A DNA stretch of 64,000 nt, from NCBI GenBank assembly GCA_963762255.1, contig CAVXKA010000002.1, positions 128,001 to 192,000 of the forward strand, written 5' to 3'. Source of the DNA: Candidatus Eiseniibacteriota bacterium. Lineage in GTDB: Bacteria > Eisenbacteria > RBG-16-71-46 > JABDJR01. A program made the position numbers and the translations under genes. Each line of letters begins with the position of its first letter. The stretch's first letter is position 1. This document shows, in pieces, positions 36,812 to 42,770 of this stretch. The notes under the pieces were generated by a model that made no database searches, was not told where the DNA came from, and was given only the letters and a program-made list of their open reading frames with translations.

Positions 36812-37419
36812 GCGTGGATGTCGCCCTCTTTCGGCTCATCAACATCGCGTGGGGTTGGGATGCGCTCGCCCCGGCGATGCGGTTCCTCAGCGGGCTCGTC
36901 TACTGGATCCCGCTTCTCGTGCTGCTCCTTCTCTGGATGCTGTTTCGCGACGGCCGTCGCGGCAGGATCACCGTGCTTCTCCTGCTCTTCCTCGTCCCGG
37001 CGACCGACCAGATCGCGAGTCATGTGCTGAAGCCGCTCGTTGCGCGGCCCCGCCCCTGCCGGGTGGAGGCGGGGATCGAGGGGGTGCGCACTCATGGAGC
37101 GCGCTGTTCGCGCCGCGGGTCGTTCCCTTCGTCCCATGCCGCCAACGTGGCCGCCGCGGCTGCCCTCTTCGCCCTTCGCTATCGCCGGGCACGCCTCCCC
37201 GCCGGCTTGATCGCTTTCCTGGTGGGTTACAGCCGCGTCTATCTGGGGGTCCACTACCCGAGCGACGTCGCCGGAGGGTGGCTTCTTGGGGCCCTCCTGG
37301 GTGGAGCGGCGGCGGGGATCCCGTTGACGATGCGTCGCAGCGGGCCTACACTCTTGGCACGGGGTTGGAATCCAAGGCATCGAAAACCCACTGCCTGCAG
37401 GAACATCGACACGCGATGA
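36808..37419 (+). CDS. PAP2-family phosphatase
   Basis: KPLVARPRP, SFPSSH, SRVYLGVHYPSDV. Confidence 0.93.
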   Translation: MSVDVALFRLINIAWGWDALAPAMRFLSGLVYWIPLLVLLLLWMLFRDGRRGRITVLLLLFLVPATDQIASHVLKPLVARPRPCRVEAGIEGVRTHGARCSRRGSFPSSHAANVAAAAALFALRYRRARLPAGLIAFLVGYSRVYLGVHYPSDVAGGWLLGALLGGAAAGIPLTMRRSGPTLLARGWNPRHRKPTACRNIDTR

Positions 37420-40268
37420 GGTCTTCCTCGACGCCCCGTCCGCCGGCTCGTGGCAACCGCAGCCGGCGAATCCTCACCCTGGCCGTGCTCTTCGCCGCCC
37501 TCTGTGCGGTACGACCGGGTGAGTCGACCGTCCCTCCGCCGGCCGGCGTCGGGTGCGGCCCCGCAGATGCCGCCGGTCTTTCTCCGCAGGAGATCCGCCT
37601 GTGGAAAGATCAAGACCTGGGACGGCCCGCCGACCACCTCCTCGGGCAGAGTGCCGAGCGCAAGGCGGGGGAGACCACGGTGCTCCGCGTCGTGGTGATC
37701 CTCGTCGATTTCCCCGATCTCGCCGCCGACCGCGTCCTGCACACACCGGAGTACTACGAGCACCTGATCTTCAGCCGGGGCGTGCGCCCCGGAGGTTCGG
37801 TCGCAGACTTCTTCGCCGAGTCCTCTCGAGGAAGGCTCCAACTGCAGGGAAAGGTCCGCGGTTGGTTCACGGTTTCCCAGACTCGAAACAGTTATACGGG
37901 AGGAGTGAGCGGGCTCGGGAGCTACCCGGTCAACTCTCAACGCCTCGCTGAAGAGGCGATCTATCTCGCCGACCCGTCCATCAATTTCGCCGATTACGAC
38001 AACGAGGGCCCGGATGAGATCGCCGATTCCGGCGATGACGACGAGGTCATCGACGGCCTCGTCCTCGTCCATGCGGGCTCCGGGCGCGCCGAGGGCGGCA
38101 CCACGACCAACGATTTCGTGAGCCTCCAGTGGTGGACGCCGGACCCCGTGCCGGTGGACGGCGTGTATGGGAGGTACTTCACGCTGAATCCCGAGAACGG
38201 GGAGATCGGGATCTTCCTCCATGAGATCGGCCACCTGCTCGGCTTGCCCGATCTCTACGACACGGACGGCGGGTCGGCCGGGGTCGGCCAATGGTCGATG
38301 ATGTCCGGAGGCTTTGTCCTCGACGGGGGCCGCACGCCTGCGGACTTCGATGCCTGGAGCAAGGTCCAGCTCGGGTTCGCCGACGTGAAGCGGATCTTCC
38401 TCAATCGCGCCGACGAGGAGATCCTTCCAACCGCTTCCTCGGGACAGGTGTACCGGCTCTGGGCGAACGGGGGAGGAACGAAGGAGTACTACCTCCTCGA
38501 GAATCGCCGCCGTACCGGGCTCGATGCGCGGCTCCCGAGTCAGGGGCTGCTGATCTATCACGTGGACGAGGGCGTTCCCAACAATCGCAATCCCAGTCAC
38601 TACAAGGTGGCGCTCGAACAGGCGGACGGTCTCTACCAACTGGAGAATCGATACGGCTCCGTCTCGTTCGGGGACTCCGGCGACCCCTACATCCAGGGGA
38701 GGGAGTTTGGCCGCGACACCGATCCATCCAGCTTTGCCTACGACGGGACGGAGAGCTACGTGGCTCTGTTCAACGTGCACGGGCCGGACGCGGCAGGAGC
38801 GTATACCGCTGACCTGCATGTGGAGCCGGGCGCGGTGGTGACGGTCACCGATCTGCAATTGACCGAGGTTTCCGGTGACGACGACGGGTTGGTCGTTACC
38901 GGCGAGACCGCCGGGTTGATGCCGCGGGTGAGCGTGGCACGCAAGGCGGCGGCGAACCTCGTGCTCTCCCTGCGGTCGCTCGATGCGCGCGCCGAGGTGC
39001 TCGATACGACCTGGGCCCCCGGCACCGTGCTCCCGGGTCAGCCCGTCACGCCGTCGCAACCCCTGCGCGTGCGGGTGGTCGGGCAACTCCCGACCAATCC
39101 TTACGGCCTGCGTCTCGAACTCACCGCGACGTGGGACGATGCGCCGCGGAAGATCGTGCCGGTCGAGTTGGGCCTGGGAACTGTCGTCGGCCTCTCGGCG
39201 GATTTCAACGCATCCCAAACCGGTTGGGTGCACGCCCCCTTGCGGTCGACCGCGGTCAACCAGTGGCTGTACGGCCCCAGCTTTGGATCCGGTGCGACCC
39301 CTGGATTCAAGTACGGAAGCGTGCCCTACGGATTCCTGGGTGGAGCGGACGCCGCTCTCGTTTCGCCGCCCATCCTGCTTCCGCCTCATGCCATCCTGGA
39401 GTTCGACCAGGCGGTGGACATCACCTATCCCGACACGGCGACGTTTCTGGGTGGGGGCGTCATCGAGGCATCCGCGAACGGCGGAGATTGGCAGCCCGTG
39501 ACGCCGGAGGGGGGATACCCGGAGTTCTACGGGGGATCGAGCCCCGGCTGGGAGGCTCGCCCCGTCTTCGCAGGTCGCCCGATGAGCGGCACCTACCATA
39601 CCGTGCGCGTGGATCTCGGGGGATTCGCCGGCGCCGTCCGCGTCCGGTTTCGTTTCTTCGCGGAGAAGGGAACGACGAGCGGCACCGGCTGGCGCGTGGA
39701 CAATGTCCGCGTGCTCTCCGATCCTACGCCGGTCCGCGTGGTGGCGGCGTCGGCCACGGCCGACGGCGGTGATGTCCTCTTGAGCTGGGAACTCGCCGAT
39801 CCTCTCCCTACCTTCCTGCGCTGGCGCCGAGGCCGGGATGAGGCCGGCGCGATGGCGATCTCCGACTGGGCGCCTGCGCAAGCCAGCGGCCGGCTTCGGG
39901 ACACCGGAGCGGCGGCGCTGGCTCCGATCCGCTACTGGCTCGACGGGTTGGAACGTGACGGCAGTGTGGAGACCTGGGGTCCGGTCACGTTGGCGGAGGG
40001 TGCGCCCCGTGTCGCCTGGAACTTGCTGGAGAATCCCTTCCGAGGCCCCGCGCGCTTCGCCTGGTCGCCCGCCCTCGATGAGGCCGCGCGGCTGGAGATT
40101 TTCGACGTGAGAGGGAGACGGGTGGCCCTTGTCGGAGTACCCGTGGGGAGTTCTCGGCTGGATTGGGACGGCAGGGGCGAGGGGGGGCAGCCGGTGCCTG
40201 CGGGCGTGTACTTCGCACGGCTTCAAGGAGCCGCGTTTCCGCCTCTCCGGCTGGTGAGGCTCCCATGA
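37416..40268 (+). CDS. Secreted M6 (immune inhibitor A-like) metalloprotease with FlgD-Ig/T9SS-like C-terminal domain
   Basis: VILVDFPD, HEIGHLLGLPDLY, WSMMSGG, YYLLENR, GLLIYHVD; C-terminal NPF...IFDVRGR...WDGR...PAGVYF. Confidence 0.9.
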   Translation: MRSSSTPRPPARGNRSRRILTLAVLFAALCAVRPGESTVPPPAGVGCGPADAAGLSPQEIRLWKDQDLGRPADHLLGQSAERKAGETTVLRVVVILVDFPDLAADRVLHTPEYYEHLIFSRGVRPGGSVADFFAESSRGRLQLQGKVRGWFTVSQTRNSYTGGVSGLGSYPVNSQRLAEEAIYLADPSINFADYDNEGPDEIADSGDDDEVIDGLVLVHAGSGRAEGGTTTNDFVSLQWWTPDPVPVDGVYGRYFTLNPENGEIGIFLHEIGHLLGLPDLYDTDGGSAGVGQWSMMSGGFVLDGGRTPADFDAWSKVQLGFADVKRIFLNRADEEILPTASSGQVYRLWANGGGTKEYYLLENRRRTGLDARLPSQGLLIYHVDEGVPNNRNPSHYKVALEQADGLYQLENRYGSVSFGDSGDPYIQGREFGRDTDPSSFAYDGTESYVALFNVHGPDAAGAYTADLHVEPGAVVTVTDLQLTEVSGDDDGLVVTGETAGLMPRVSVARKAAANLVLSLRSLDARAEVLDTTWAPGTVLPGQPVTPSQPLRVRVVGQLPTNPYGLRLELTATWDDAPRKIVPVELGLGTVVGLSADFNASQTGWVHAPLRSTAVNQWLYGPSFGSGATPGFKYGSVPYGFLGGADAALVSPPILLPPHAILEFDQAVDITYPDTATFLGGGVIEASANGGDWQPVTPEGGYPEFYGGSSPGWEARPVFAGRPMSGTYHTVRVDLGGFAGAVRVRFRFFAEKGTTSGTGWRVDNVRVLSDPTPVRVVAASATADGGDVLLSWELADPLPTFLRWRRGRDEAGAMAISDWAPAQASGRLRDTGAAALAPIRYWLDGLERDGSVETWGPVTLAEGAPRVAWNLLENPFRGPARFAWSPALDEAARLEIFDVRGRRVALVGVPVGSSRLDWDGRGEGGQPVPAGVYFARLQGAAFPPLRLVRLP

Positions 40269-41443
40269 GGCGTCTACTTTGCCTCGGGCTCCTGCTGGCC
40301 GCTCCGGCCTTCGGCGCGACCTGGCAACCGGGTTCGCAGGAGATCCCTGCACCGGAAATGAGCGCGAGCCTGGGGGGCGGACAGCCGGTCGCGTCGGGCA
40401 TCGGCGGCGAGGTGTTCATCCTCTTCCAGGACTTCGTCGATGACACGACGTTTCGTGTGGGAGCCCTCGTTCGCGCTGCTGACGGAACGTGGTTGCCGGC
40501 CGAGCTGCTCTCCGGCGATCGCAATGCGCGCAACCCGAGCGTGGCGGTCGGCCAGGATGGCCGCGCCCATGTCGTCTGGGAGGACATCACCGAGGGAGAC
40601 GGGGACATCGTGTATCGGGTCCGCGGTGCGGACGGCATCTGGAGCGAGACGATCTCGATCGCGCCGGCGGCGGGAGCGTCGCGCGAGCCGGTACTGGCCG
40701 TGGACGCGTTCGGCCGAGTTCACGCGGTATGGGTCGATGCGCGCACCGGCCTCCCTCAGATCGTGCATTCCGTTCTGCCTCCCGGGGGCGCATGGGCGCA
40801 ACCCGTTGTGATCAGTGTCGGCGGAGACAACCCGGACGAGCCCTCGGTGGCCGCCGACGGAGTGGGCGGGGTGCACATTGTCTGGCGCGACCGGACCGGC
40901 TCCATACGCACCGGCGTGAGCTACGACATCCTGTACCTGCGCATCGACGCGATGGAGCCCCCGGGTGCGCCGCTCCAACTGGTCAACCACATCGCCATGT
41001 CGCAGTGGCCGGCCATCGCAGCGACGGAGGACGGTGTGCTCCACCTCGTCTGGGCAGACAACCGGGACGCTCAGCGCGGATCCTTCTTCGAGATTTACTA
41101 CAAGCGGTACCTTCCAGGCGTCGGCTGGGGCCATGACAAGCGCTTCACCCGCGACCAGCACGACCACTCCCGCCCGGTGGTGGCCGTCGGCGCCGGCGCA
41201 AGCGTTAACGTGGCGTGGGAGGATTTCCGGGACGGAAATTCGGAGATCTATTTCCGGCAGATCACGCCCGAGTTGGGCTGGGATCCCGCGTCCACCCGTC
41301 TCAGCCTGGACATCTCCTCCTCGCAGACCCCGTCGCTCCTCGCTCTCCCGGACGGGAGCCTCCTCGCTTTGTGGACGGACGCCCGCGGCTTCGGGGACTT
41401 TCGTCTCCTCGTCAAGAGCGGGGCGATCATCGCTCCGCACTGA
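40265..41443 (+). CDS. Secreted beta-propeller (BNR/sialidase-like repeat) protein
   Basis: Signal peptide; about six repeats of P-x-[VLI]-A...G..H[VI]VW.D...IYY...W. Confidence 0.75.
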   Translation: MRRLLCLGLLLAAPAFGATWQPGSQEIPAPEMSASLGGGQPVASGIGGEVFILFQDFVDDTTFRVGALVRAADGTWLPAELLSGDRNARNPSVAVGQDGRAHVVWEDITEGDGDIVYRVRGADGIWSETISIAPAAGASREPVLAVDAFGRVHAVWVDARTGLPQIVHSVLPPGGAWAQPVVISVGGDNPDEPSVAADGVGGVHIVWRDRTGSIRTGVSYDILYLRIDAMEPPGAPLQLVNHIAMSQWPAIAATEDGVLHLVWADNRDAQRGSFFEIYYKRYLPGVGWGHDKRFTRDQHDHSRPVVAVGAGASVNVAWEDFRDGNSEIYFRQITPELGWDPASTRLSLDISSSQTPSLLALPDGSLLALWTDARGFGDFRLLVKSGAIIAPH

Positions 41444-41608
41444 CGCTCGAAGAGTGATTTCCCCCGATTCGGGGGCAAATTCCCCGCGGAGACGCGAATA
41501 CGCGTCCCCCGGGATCGCCTCGCACCTCCGCCCCGGCGATGCCCGGCGTTCCGTATCCGCCTATGGCGAAGCCGCTTGCCCTCCGGCAAGCGCGGCGGGG
41601 GAGTCGAG

Positions 41609-41624
41609 TGGCATGGCGGTTGCT
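41609..41624 (+). promoter_or_regulatory. Sigma54 (-24/-12) promoter
   Basis: TGGCAT-GGCGG-TTGCT with exact spacing; palindromes 110-150 nt upstream. Confidence 0.65.
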
Positions 41625-41676
41625 CAATCATAGATGCACGCGCGGAGCTCACCGGCGCACCGAAAACGAGCGGTGG

Positions 41677-41765
41677 TTTCCCTGCGGTGTTCGTGAAGAC
41701 CTGCGTTGAGACGTTGATCCGCCAGAGTAAACACAGTTCACCAGGCACACGGCATCAGCGGGGAT
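41677..41765 (+). ncRNA. Short 6S-RNA-like hairpin
   Basis: 5' TTTCCCTGCGGTGTTCGTG pairs with 3' CACGGCATCAGCGGGGAT, both resembling 6S terminal-stem sequences as I recall them; inner CCTG/CAGG and TGAG/TTCA helices. Confidence 0.6.
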
Positions 41766-41770
41766 CGAAG

Positions 41771-41802
41771 AGGGCCGGCCCCAGGGCCGGCCCTTTCTTC
41801 TT
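41771..41802 (+). terminator. Intrinsic terminator
   Basis: AGGGCCGGCC-CCAG-GGCCGGCCCT followed by TTCTTCTT. Confidence 0.8.
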
Positions 41803-41811
41803 CCCCTCGCG

Positions 41812-41841
41812 TTGACAGCAATTCCCGGCCTTTGTTAGCTT
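41812..41841 (+). promoter_or_regulatory. Sigma70 promoter for sppA
   Basis: TTGACA-N18-TAGCTT with TG extended -10. Confidence 0.7.
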
Positions 41842-41888
41842 CCCTCCACGTTTCGGCGCGCCTCCACCTCCCACAGAACGAGTCGCCC

Positions 41889-42770
41889 ATGGCCACCCGC
41901 ACACAAGGTCTCCTGCTCGGTTGCCTCGTTCTCTTCGTGATCGGCGGTTTCTTCCTCGTGGCCTCGTCGTTCCTCCTCTCCGGCTCCTGGCCGGGCGGCG
42001 ATCTCGGCGGCTTGGGGAGCGGTCGCGTCGGCCTCGTGGTCATCGAAGGTCCCATCGAATCGTCCCGGGACCTGGTGCAGGAGATCGACGACAACCGCAA
42101 GGATCCCAGTATCAAGGCGGTCGTGCTGCGGGTGGACAGCCCCGGTGGCGAGGTGGCTCCCTCCCAGGAACTCCACTCGGCGGTGAGCCGGCTCGCGGAG
42201 GTGAAACCGGTGGTGGCCTCGCTGGGGAGCGTCGCTGCATCGGGGGGATACTACGTCGCGGTCGCGGCGGATTCGGTCATCGCGGATCCGGGCACCCTGA
42301 CCGGCAGCATCGGCGTGATCTTCGCGTATCCCACCGCGAAGGCTCTCATGGACAAGCTCGGCGTGACGCTGCAGGTCTACAAGAGCGGCGAACTCAAGGA
42401 CATGGGTTCGTATGCGCGCGAGCCCACCGAGGAAGAGGGCGAGGTCTTCGACGCGTTGATCGCCGACGTGTACGATCAGTTCGTGAGCGCGGTGGCCGAT
42501 GGACGAAGGATGGAGAGGGATCGTGTGATCGCCCTCGCCGATGGGCGCGTGTATACCGGCCGGCAAGCGGTGGAGATCGGCCTCGTGGATCGGCTGGGTG
42601 ACCTGCACGAGGCGATCAACGTGGCTGCGGAGTTGGGCGGACTCCAAGAGGATCCCTCGGTCGTGCGCAAGGCCAAACCGCGACTTCCCCTCCTCGACCT
42701 CCTCGACACCGTCCTCGGCTCGGGGGCCCGGGCCACCTGGGGACCCCGCCTGGAGTACCGCCTCCGCTGA
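41889..42770 (+). CDS. sppA: Signal peptide peptidase SppA (36K type)
   Basis: LRVDSPGG, AASGGYYVA, TGSIGV, KSGELKD, ADGRVYTGRQA. Confidence 0.95.
   Translation: MATRTQGLLLGCLVLFVIGGFFLVASSFLLSGSWPGGDLGGLGSGRVGLVVIEGPIESSRDLVQEIDDNRKDPSIKAVVLRVDSPGGEVAPSQELHSAVSRLAEVKPVVASLGSVAASGGYYVAVAADSVIADPGTLTGSIGVIFAYPTAKALMDKLGVTLQVYKSGELKDMGSYAREPTEEEGEVFDALIADVYDQFVSAVADGRRMERDRVIALADGRVYTGRQAVEIGLVDRLGDLHEAINVAAELGGLQEDPSVVRKAKPRLPLLDLLDTVLGSGARATWGPRLEYRLR

Follow-up and report, generated by a model that had tools for sequence, protein, structure and literature searches.

A putative sigma-54-controlled small RNA resembling the closing arm of 6S RNA in the Candidatus Eisenbacteria phylum

Positions 41,609 to 41,802 of a 64,000-nucleotide (nt) stretch of Candidatus Eiseniibacteriota DNA (the window; contig CAVXKA010000002.1, 128,001 to 192,000) carry on the + strand a stand-alone non-coding gene, the product of which, hereafter the short RNA, is predicted to form a long hairpin resembling the closing arm of 6S RNA. 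6S RNA is a textbook regulator of bacterial RNA polymerase (RNAP), which it influences by mimicking an open promoter. That the short RNA represents a real RNA family, and that this family is kin to the 6S arm, we consider very probable. The fuller statement, that the gene encodes an independent small RNA of an undescribed family of the Ca. Eisenbacteria phylum which is 6S-arm-like and directed at RNAP, is put forward tentatively. The same holds for the RNAP-directed role taken singly, which we nevertheless rank first and whose mechanism we infer. The original prediction, made from this DNA alone, had treated the locus as a single oddity; instead, the RNA belongs to a phylum-wide family, matched in 112 of 151 genomes. 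The hairpin and its main parts are as follows.

41675..41767, + strand: 6S-arm-like hairpin of 93 nt, the conserved core of the RNA, delimited by our own covariance models (Rfam boundaries 41676-41768).
41707..41740, + strand: inner helix of UGAG (41707-10) and UUCA (41737-40) around the apical region, which matches CuGAgCC/GGuUCa of Rfam 6S and whose pairs are kept in the alignment.
41713..41720, + strand: apical motif GUUGAUCC (family consensus G-Y-UGAUCC).

The + strand of 41630-41802 has a folding energy of -73.4 kcal/mol (z = -2.63; 1 of 200 shuffles did as well), and the fold of the - strand is less distinctive (z = -1.59). The minimum free energy (MFE) structure of the + strand comprises a leader with two small hairpins, a single long hairpin and a terminal hairpin rich in G+C. 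The long hairpin had been predicted to span 89 nt (41677-41765); its presence was confirmed, and by our models it spans 93 nt. It scores 103.2 and 98.5 bits with our covariance models R1 and R2, respectively. At Rfam gathering thresholds, the window yields only two tRNAs. When all 4227 families of Rfam 15 were searched permissively over 41400-41900 (E <= 10), ten matches were obtained, the best of which was 6S (RF00013) at 41676-41768, with 28.1 bits and E = 6.9e-4 in this search of 501 nt. Model positions 1-31 and 165-187 are aligned, and 38 nt take the place of the 133 positions between them. The other matches in 41400-41900 belong to unrelated families only, and are weaker, sub-threshold and of E 0.03 or worse. 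Likewise, for nine other members of the family, no Rfam family reached threshold and only 6S appeared at E <= 0.1. A shorter 6S-like RNA, 6S-Flavo, exists in another phylum of the same superphylum; it was neither among the ten matches in 41400-41900 nor found at E <= 0.1 for the nine other members. The locus thus shows no match to an existing short 6S family, neither 6S-Flavo nor any other Rfam family being found at threshold.

Genome-wide, RF00013 identifies a canonical 6S RNA of 179 nt (87.3 bits), so that a full-length ssrS does exist elsewhere in the genome, followed by a 154-nt match (49.6 bits) and, third-best, by the hairpin (E = 1.3e-3). The canonical copy sits between pheT-like and YmdB (ymdB-like) genes, and the short RNA, located between a 426-amino-acid (aa) open reading frame (ORF) and sppA, lies outside the usual zapA/ygfA or rny/ymdB context of 6S, as had been supposed. 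In the genomes of family f9, the scores of RF00013 on the short RNA are 26-34 bits, with E = 3e-5 to 3e-3 per genome. Canonical 6S is found above the cut-off in 117 of the 151 genomes of the class, including genomes with the short RNA; because the two coexist, the short RNA is an additional gene and not a replacement. The second 6S match of the genome (contig C1:103435-103588, + strand; locus L002, 1501-1654) is just above the cut-off, and judging from these sequences the genome may carry three 6S-related RNAs.

The relationship can be traced along the strands. On the closing side, the Rfam 6S consensus consists of an outer stem, GUUCG, an internal loop and the helix gcccCuGAgCC/GGuUCaAgggc, and g-A then opens the 5' strand of the central bubble (model positions 43-44). 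From its 5' end the short RNA presents UUCCCUGC, 4 nt, xCGYG, an internal loop, a covarying helix that ends in UGAGCU or UGGGCU (UGAGAC in the window), and GAU at 41-45; the return strand has AGUU(U/C)CA, CACGG and GCGGGGAA. The two RNAs are thus alike in the outer stem UUCCCUGC...GCGGGGAA, in the CGUG/CACGG segment, in the inner CuGAgCC/GGuUCa helix, in the length of the arm up to G-A (about 41-45 nt to GAU, equal to model positions 43-44 of 6S), and in being encoded by a non-coding stand-alone gene. The RF00013 match and this comparison with the consensus bear out the predicted likeness to the 6S closing arm, inner UGAG/UUCA helix included. By sequence, the short RNA corresponds to 6S positions about 1-44 plus 143-187. 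In addition, two blocks of invariant columns outside the apex, UCCCUG near the 5' end and GGGGA near the 3' end, are common to the canonical 6S RNAs of the phylum, and these shared invariant nucleotides point to a shared partner.

In contrast to 6S RNA, the short RNA lacks the two-stranded central bubble, the upstream (-35-like) arm and the terminal loop, all of which are replaced by about 20 nt. The apical arm had rightly been described as missing; what had been taken for the bubble, however, is a closed apical loop with a conserved UGAUCC. The short RNA is also half the size of 6S (87-105 nt versus about 180-220 nt in the same phylum) has a sigma-54 type promoter, and lies outside the pheT/ymdB context of the canonical copy. 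The short RNA is therefore related to 6S by its arm, yet it fails two defining features of the 6S family.

The family was delineated in steps of increasing reach. BLASTN of 41600-41830 against 40 relatives and the genome itself gave matches in 10 of the 41, six of them long (the genome of the window, a congeneric one and four from a sister genus) and the other four of 25-47 nt. A covariance model of the six hairpins matched 8 of 8 genomes of the family, and in the two newly found members the hairpin again has sppA after it and, before it, the sigma-54 motif or a contig end that falls within this motif. With a model of eight hairpins, 67 of the 151 genomes of the class were matched at E <= 1, and with a model of the 67 members the number rose to 112 of the 151 genomes of the phylum at E <= 0.01, a tally in which the unpublished genome G054 is counted. 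Genomes with a match mostly have a single one. The 67-member model matched the following numbers of genomes in the individual families: f1, 6/6; f2, 2/2; f10, 56/60; f9, 31/32; f17, 5/6; f12, 5/5; f18, 2/3; f13, 2/2; f3, 1/1; f4, 1/1; and f6, f7, f8, f11, f14, f15 and f16 together, 0/32. Distinct members range in length from 87 to 105 nt, 104 nt being the length of 32 of the 63. A pattern scan of a named genome collection matched at least 120 stretches; among the 80 listed and tested with model R3, eight score 49-83 bits (four titled Ca. Eisenbacteria and four 'uncultured bacterium'), and the remaining 72 are chance or near-chance matches, two of them at about 20-21 bits.

Outside the phylum, the short RNA was found in none of five single genomes and in none of 81 genomes from the phylum of a metagenome-assembled genome (MAG) titled Latescibacterota. 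In the phylum of a MAG titled Longimicrobiaceae, the model matches 6 of 101 genomes, with hairpins of 85-89 nt and the same closing-arm sequence. Four of the six were inspected (L301-L304): they share the hairpin size and the closing arm AAGUUCCCUGC...GCGGGGAACU, but differ from the short RNA in the apex, in having no UGAUCC and in having no GG-N8-TTGC upstream. A U-run follows directly 3' of the hairpin in three of the four (L301-L303). From their sequences, these hairpins may be a sister family or an independent truncation. They suggest that closing-arm-only relatives of 6S occur in more than one phylum.

Two kinds of alignment show that the paired structure is maintained. In a model-free MAFFT alignment of 60 distinct members, RNAalifold recovers the outer stem, and 9 of 19 pairs carry compensatory double changes; at one of these pairs, for example, CG occurs 14 times, UA 13, GC 13 and AU 4. 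In the model-fitted alignment (62 distinct rows, 31 pairs), standard pairs make up 92.6% of the cells, and double changes are present at 20 of the 31 pairs, in 204 cells; none of 500 shuffles reach these values, and sliding the partner by 1-3 columns leaves 17-26 double-change cells. The MAFFT result is the more independent of the two, because the model-fitted alignment leans towards the structure. The covariation expected of homologues is thus found in both. In the alignment of the six genomes, the hairpin is very conserved and contains an invariant block that starts with GUUGAGA and ends with GUUGAUCCGCCAGAGUA. Among the 60 distinct members, G39, T41, A43, C45 and C46 of the apex are invariant and G42 and T44 are kept in at least 90%; the apex is otherwise a family-specific mini-hairpin of at most 2-6 bp within the loop of about 20 nt.

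The integrity of the assembly over the hairpin, which had been flagged for verification, is sound. The hairpin is covered by contigs of four public DNA runs, each from a different study, which show neither indels nor, in 41671-41780, any substitution, while the flanks outside the hairpin carry many differences. In one of these contigs, which spans 41450-41950, none of the 29 differences and two one-letter gaps falls within the hairpin. The absence of indels in four independent runs excludes an assembly collapse, and a hairpin unchanged amid differing flanks indicates strong purifying selection. Two trivial explanations can also be set aside. A coding reading is out, since the lengths of the members (87, 89, 92, 93 and 98-105 nt) differ by non-multiples of three and the stem substitutions are compensatory; ORFs of 79 and 56 aa do overlap 41609-41802, and such ORFs arise easily because the genome has 66.7% G+C. 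A mobile repeat is likewise out, given that there is mostly one match per genome and that the only other match in the genome of the window reaches 22.2 bits (E = 0.2).

The hairpin is embedded in a unit of its own. Every sequence feature that had been listed for it is present, and the prediction of a non-coding unit that stands apart from sppA, with a promoter of sigma-54 type and a terminator of its own, is supported:

41609..41624, + strand: putative sigma-54 type promoter, recognized from the sequence, its conservation in relatives and the upstream-motif count.
41634..41636, + strand: predicted transcription start, near 41635, placed by the -12/-24 spacing.
41639..41675, + strand: variable 5' leader with two small hairpins in the MFE fold.
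41768..41802, + strand: predicted terminator hairpin with a U-rich tail, from the fold and compensatory changes.
41812..41841, + strand: separate sigma-70-like promoter of sppA (TTGACA at 41812-17, TGnTAGCTT at 41833-41).
41889..42770, + strand: sppA (signal peptide peptidase, S49), with an ATG at 41889 (Pfam Peptidase_S49, E = 6.4e-47).

The putative promoter TGGCATGGCGGTTGCT (41609-41624) has GG at 41610-11 and GC at 41622-23, the correct -24/-12 spacing for sigma-54. Sigma-54 promoters have 12 nt from the -12 GC to the start of transcription. The pattern that defines the class, GG and GC elements 10 nt apart (TGGCAC-N5-TTGCW) conserved at orthologous positions, is found here: the -24/-12 motif is kept in 6 of 6 aligned relatives, while neighbouring bases vary. 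Across the RNA family, GG-N8-TTGC occurs within 160 nt upstream, on the strand of the RNA, at 60 of 68 distinct loci, compared with 2 of 68 when the same stretch is read on the other strand and 6 of 68 when the 160 nt downstream are taken. Among the eight loci lacking it, one has ATGC for TTGC, and in another the contig breaks off at TTGCA. A conserved promoter of this type implies that expression should need an enhancer-binding activator. The gene for sigma-54 itself, rpoN, is present in the genome (Sigma54_DBD, 216 bits) and in 146 of the 151 genomes of the phylum, and being near-universal its co-occurrence with the short RNA is uninformative.

Downstream of the promoter, the leader is poorly conserved. 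The small hairpin of CACCG (41658-62) with CGGTG (41671-75) in the MFE fold is not kept in sequence beyond the genus, the leader has only three weak consensus pairs, and in different family members 13 to 112 nt separate the -12 GC from the hairpin; only the hairpin can therefore be regarded as the constant part of the RNA. The predicted terminator combines a G+C-rich hairpin with a CTTTCTTCTT tail, and compensatory changes occur at three stem pairs in six genomes. By the usual description of a terminator, a hairpin plus a U-run, the hairpin is strong and the tail is CUUUCUUCUU, although a simple scan made no call. Simple consensus scans of 41000-42400 returned no promoter-like and no terminator-like site; such scans are too strict for this G+C-rich genome. 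Beyond the terminator, the TTGACA and TG-TA---T (TGnTAnnnT) elements of the sppA promoter are kept in 6 of 6 relatives, while the surrounding bases vary.

Elsewhere in the genome, on contig C1 near 719239 (- strand), a strict motif TGGCACGCGGGTTGCA is followed by a G+C-rich inverted repeat and a T-run within about 90 nt; from its sequence, this site may be another sigma-54-driven short transcript.

What, then, might the short RNA do? The RNAP-directed reading is ranked first because nucleotides shared with 6S, and not only pairs, have been kept together with the length of the arm, and because an invariant single strand stands where the template strand begins. The closing arm of 6S RNA lies in the downstream-DNA channel of RNAP, and the product RNA of E. 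coli 6S starts at U44. By analogy, the short RNA would dock in RNAP like the 6S closing arm, in the downstream-duplex channel, so that the UGAUCC strand, which sits where the template strand of the 6S bubble begins, would reach the region of the active site. A sigma-54 activator would switch the RNA on, and the RNA would then modulate the availability of polymerase or compete with canonical 6S; possibly it would also serve as a template for short product RNAs. A more specific form of this proposal, which we hold to be rather doubtful, is that the short RNA is a natural minimal 6S, that is, a second, enhancer-controlled class of RNAP-binding RNA consisting of only the downstream arm and the start of the template strand. 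Such an RNA would occupy the main channel of the core or the sigma-54 (or sigma-70) polymerase upon an environmental signal, either assisting canonical 6S or opposing it, and might itself be a template for product RNAs.

There is an artificial counterpart. According to the report on it (PMC8876501), a truncated Bacillus subtilis 6S-1 of 78 nt without the -35-like region bound sigmaA-RNAP about 10-fold more weakly and still templated product RNAs (pRNAs). The engineered 6S78 and 6S82cp (78-82 nt) described there resemble the short RNA in being short and in lacking the -35-like region, and they indicate that a much-reduced 6S still works. The natural short RNA, however, differs from them in keeping the whole closing arm and in lacking the 3' strand of the bubble and the upstream helix.

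Several observations weigh against an RNAP-directed role or against its sigma-54 control. The engineered molecules of PMC8876501 are artificial and keep the whole bubble with a short helix on each side while the closing arm is cut. The match of 28.1 bits is below the RF00013 gathering cut-off of 46.4. The upstream arm and the 3' strand of the bubble, which are thought to hold the sigma-70 holoenzyme on 6S, are absent from the short RNA. The conserved single-stranded UGAUCC with the C-rich bases after it would equally resemble the seed of a base-pairing RNA. The strict sigma-54 motif was found seven times genome-wide against 4.4 expected, without enrichment, a count that says nothing about a sigma-54 regulon. 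None of the flanking genes in the window is an activator gene adjoining the locus. The seven families without a match to the short RNA (32 genomes) possess both rpoN and canonical 6S. Finally, none of the RNA runs looked up for 41400-42400 of the window contained the stretch.

The strongest competitor, which we judge less likely, is a trans-acting base-pairing small RNA (sRNA), in which the apical UGAUCC(C/G)C would be a seed for G-rich sites, such as the ribosome-binding regions of mRNAs, and the 6S-like stem, derived from a 6S gene that had been duplicated, would serve only as a stable scaffold. Among the single-stranded bases, those in the apical loop are indeed the best conserved, with C-rich bases after them in most families, and the gene has its own promoter and terminator and variable neighbours. 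Both sigma-54-dependent base-pairing sRNAs and sRNAs with C-rich loops are known kinds. Among the sigma-54-dependent sRNAs are GlmY, Qrr, CrcZ and NrsZ, and the short RNA is like them in having a -24/-12 promoter, in being a short, terminated non-coding RNA and in being presumably controlled by an activator; it differs in showing no sequence or structure match to such Rfam families, and no sigma-54-dependent sRNA of this group is known to resemble a 6S arm. A crude genome scan for 11-mers complementary to the loop gave about 40 scattered, mostly intragenic matches and no convincing target. In f10 and f3, moreover, part of the C-run can pair inside the apical mini-hairpin. This explanation also leaves it unexplained why the stem has retained nucleotides of the 6S closing arm beyond the mere pairs.

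The neighbourhood of the RNA bears on another alternative, a cis-acting leader, in which the sigma-54 promoter would drive the downstream gene (sppA in the window) and the hairpin and terminator would form an attenuator or a protein-binding leader that controls read-through. On the same strand, the hairpin lies directly upstream of sppA at 8 of 8 loci in f1 and at 7 of 7 f9 loci with 1.5-kb flanks. In addition, a run of at least four T directly follows the hairpin in 10 of 63 distinct members, where the hairpin itself could terminate transcription. However, sppA is not downstream in f10, f12, f3, f4 and f5, and the genes that follow the RNA elsewhere are unrelated. In f10, the RNA is flanked by an oligopeptide ABC ATPase gene on one side and by microcompartment shell genes (BMC, EutN) on the other; in f12, it precedes an OPT oligopeptide transporter gene, and elsewhere an S8 peptidase gene or PFK. 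Within families it is syntenic. Furthermore, sppA has its own conserved promoter past the terminator, and the variable leader has no conserved alternative antiterminator pairing. The changing neighbours, the terminator and the separate sppA promoter favour a trans-acting RNA over a leader, which we consider improbable.

Some further features of the neighbourhood are recorded here. The 426-aa ORF upstream of the RNA has no Pfam match and is conserved beside the RNA in the family. Further upstream in the window (36849-41443) is a gene for a 1139-aa M6 peptidase of the immune inhibitor A type, the C terminus of which carries a FlgD_ig-like domain. From family to family, genes for peptidases and for peptide transport are repeatedly found next to the short RNA.

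Quite improbable, in our view, is a partner other than RNAP, either a processing or chaperone protein shared with 6S or the 3' end of 16S rRNA. The 16S rRNA of the genome ends in ...GCGGCUGGAUCACCUCCUUUCU, and UGAUCC is complementary to the GGAUCA that precedes the anti-Shine-Dalgarno; the sequence conservation of the closing arm, which exceeds the needs of pairing, would also suit another partner. However, the complementarity to 16S rRNA amounts to six bases and its extension is poor in most families, and we know of no precedent for a reading based on the 16S 3' end or on another such partner. Absence of function (a 6S copy decaying after an internal deletion, a mobile palindromic repeat or a hairpin formed by chance) might be argued from the sub-threshold Rfam score and the other 6S copies in the genome, but is barely credible for a mostly single-copy RNA present in 112 of 151 genomes, held at 87-105 nt, with compensatory changes in 20 of 31 pairs, a conserved promoter, synteny within families and a hairpin free of substitutions in four environmental assemblies with differing flanks.

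A literature search, with subscription journals outside its coverage, found no description of this RNA, and the family appears to be undescribed; the one paper found to mention Eisenbacteria together with small RNA is a survey of CsrA. If the RNAP-directed role is true, a naturally selected, phylum-wide RNA made of the downstream arm only would show which half of 6S has an independent function, and its sigma-54 control beside a full 6S would link enhancer-dependent signalling to global control of the polymerase. According to PMC11077062, no RNAP-associated RNAs other than 6S and Ms1 were known until that study. Should the short RNA instead act by base pairing, it would clearly exemplify how a copy of the 6S gene has been put to use again, as the scaffold for a new regulator. 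If it is a minimal 6S, the relatives in the neighbouring phylum would point to a wider, overlooked kind of regulator. Under the RNAP-directed as well as the base-pairing reading, it would provide a phylum that we know only from metagenome assemblies with a first defined regulatory RNA, for which a usable covariance model exists.

A few loci of the family show additional elements. At L023 (G012:C315, 1501-1594), a divergent hairpin with the same closing arm and a different apex scores on both strands and adjoins the gene of a sigma-54 activator of the response-regulator type; the same genome has a regular member, L142. In the otherwise variable leaders of seven f10 loci (L024, L027, L029, L035, L036, L040 and L043), a conserved AACCGAAUA-like motif lies 5-8 nt before the hairpin; it may mark a site of processing or belong to the mature RNA. 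At the f10 loci L024-L031, L035, L036 and L043, a second conserved hairpin, GGGCCC(UGA)...(UCA)GGGCCC, of about 65 nt, is located about 5-75 nt after the short RNA and ahead of the shell genes, followed by AUGA and, in some loci, by a further terminator; judged by sequence, it could be another small RNA or a leader.

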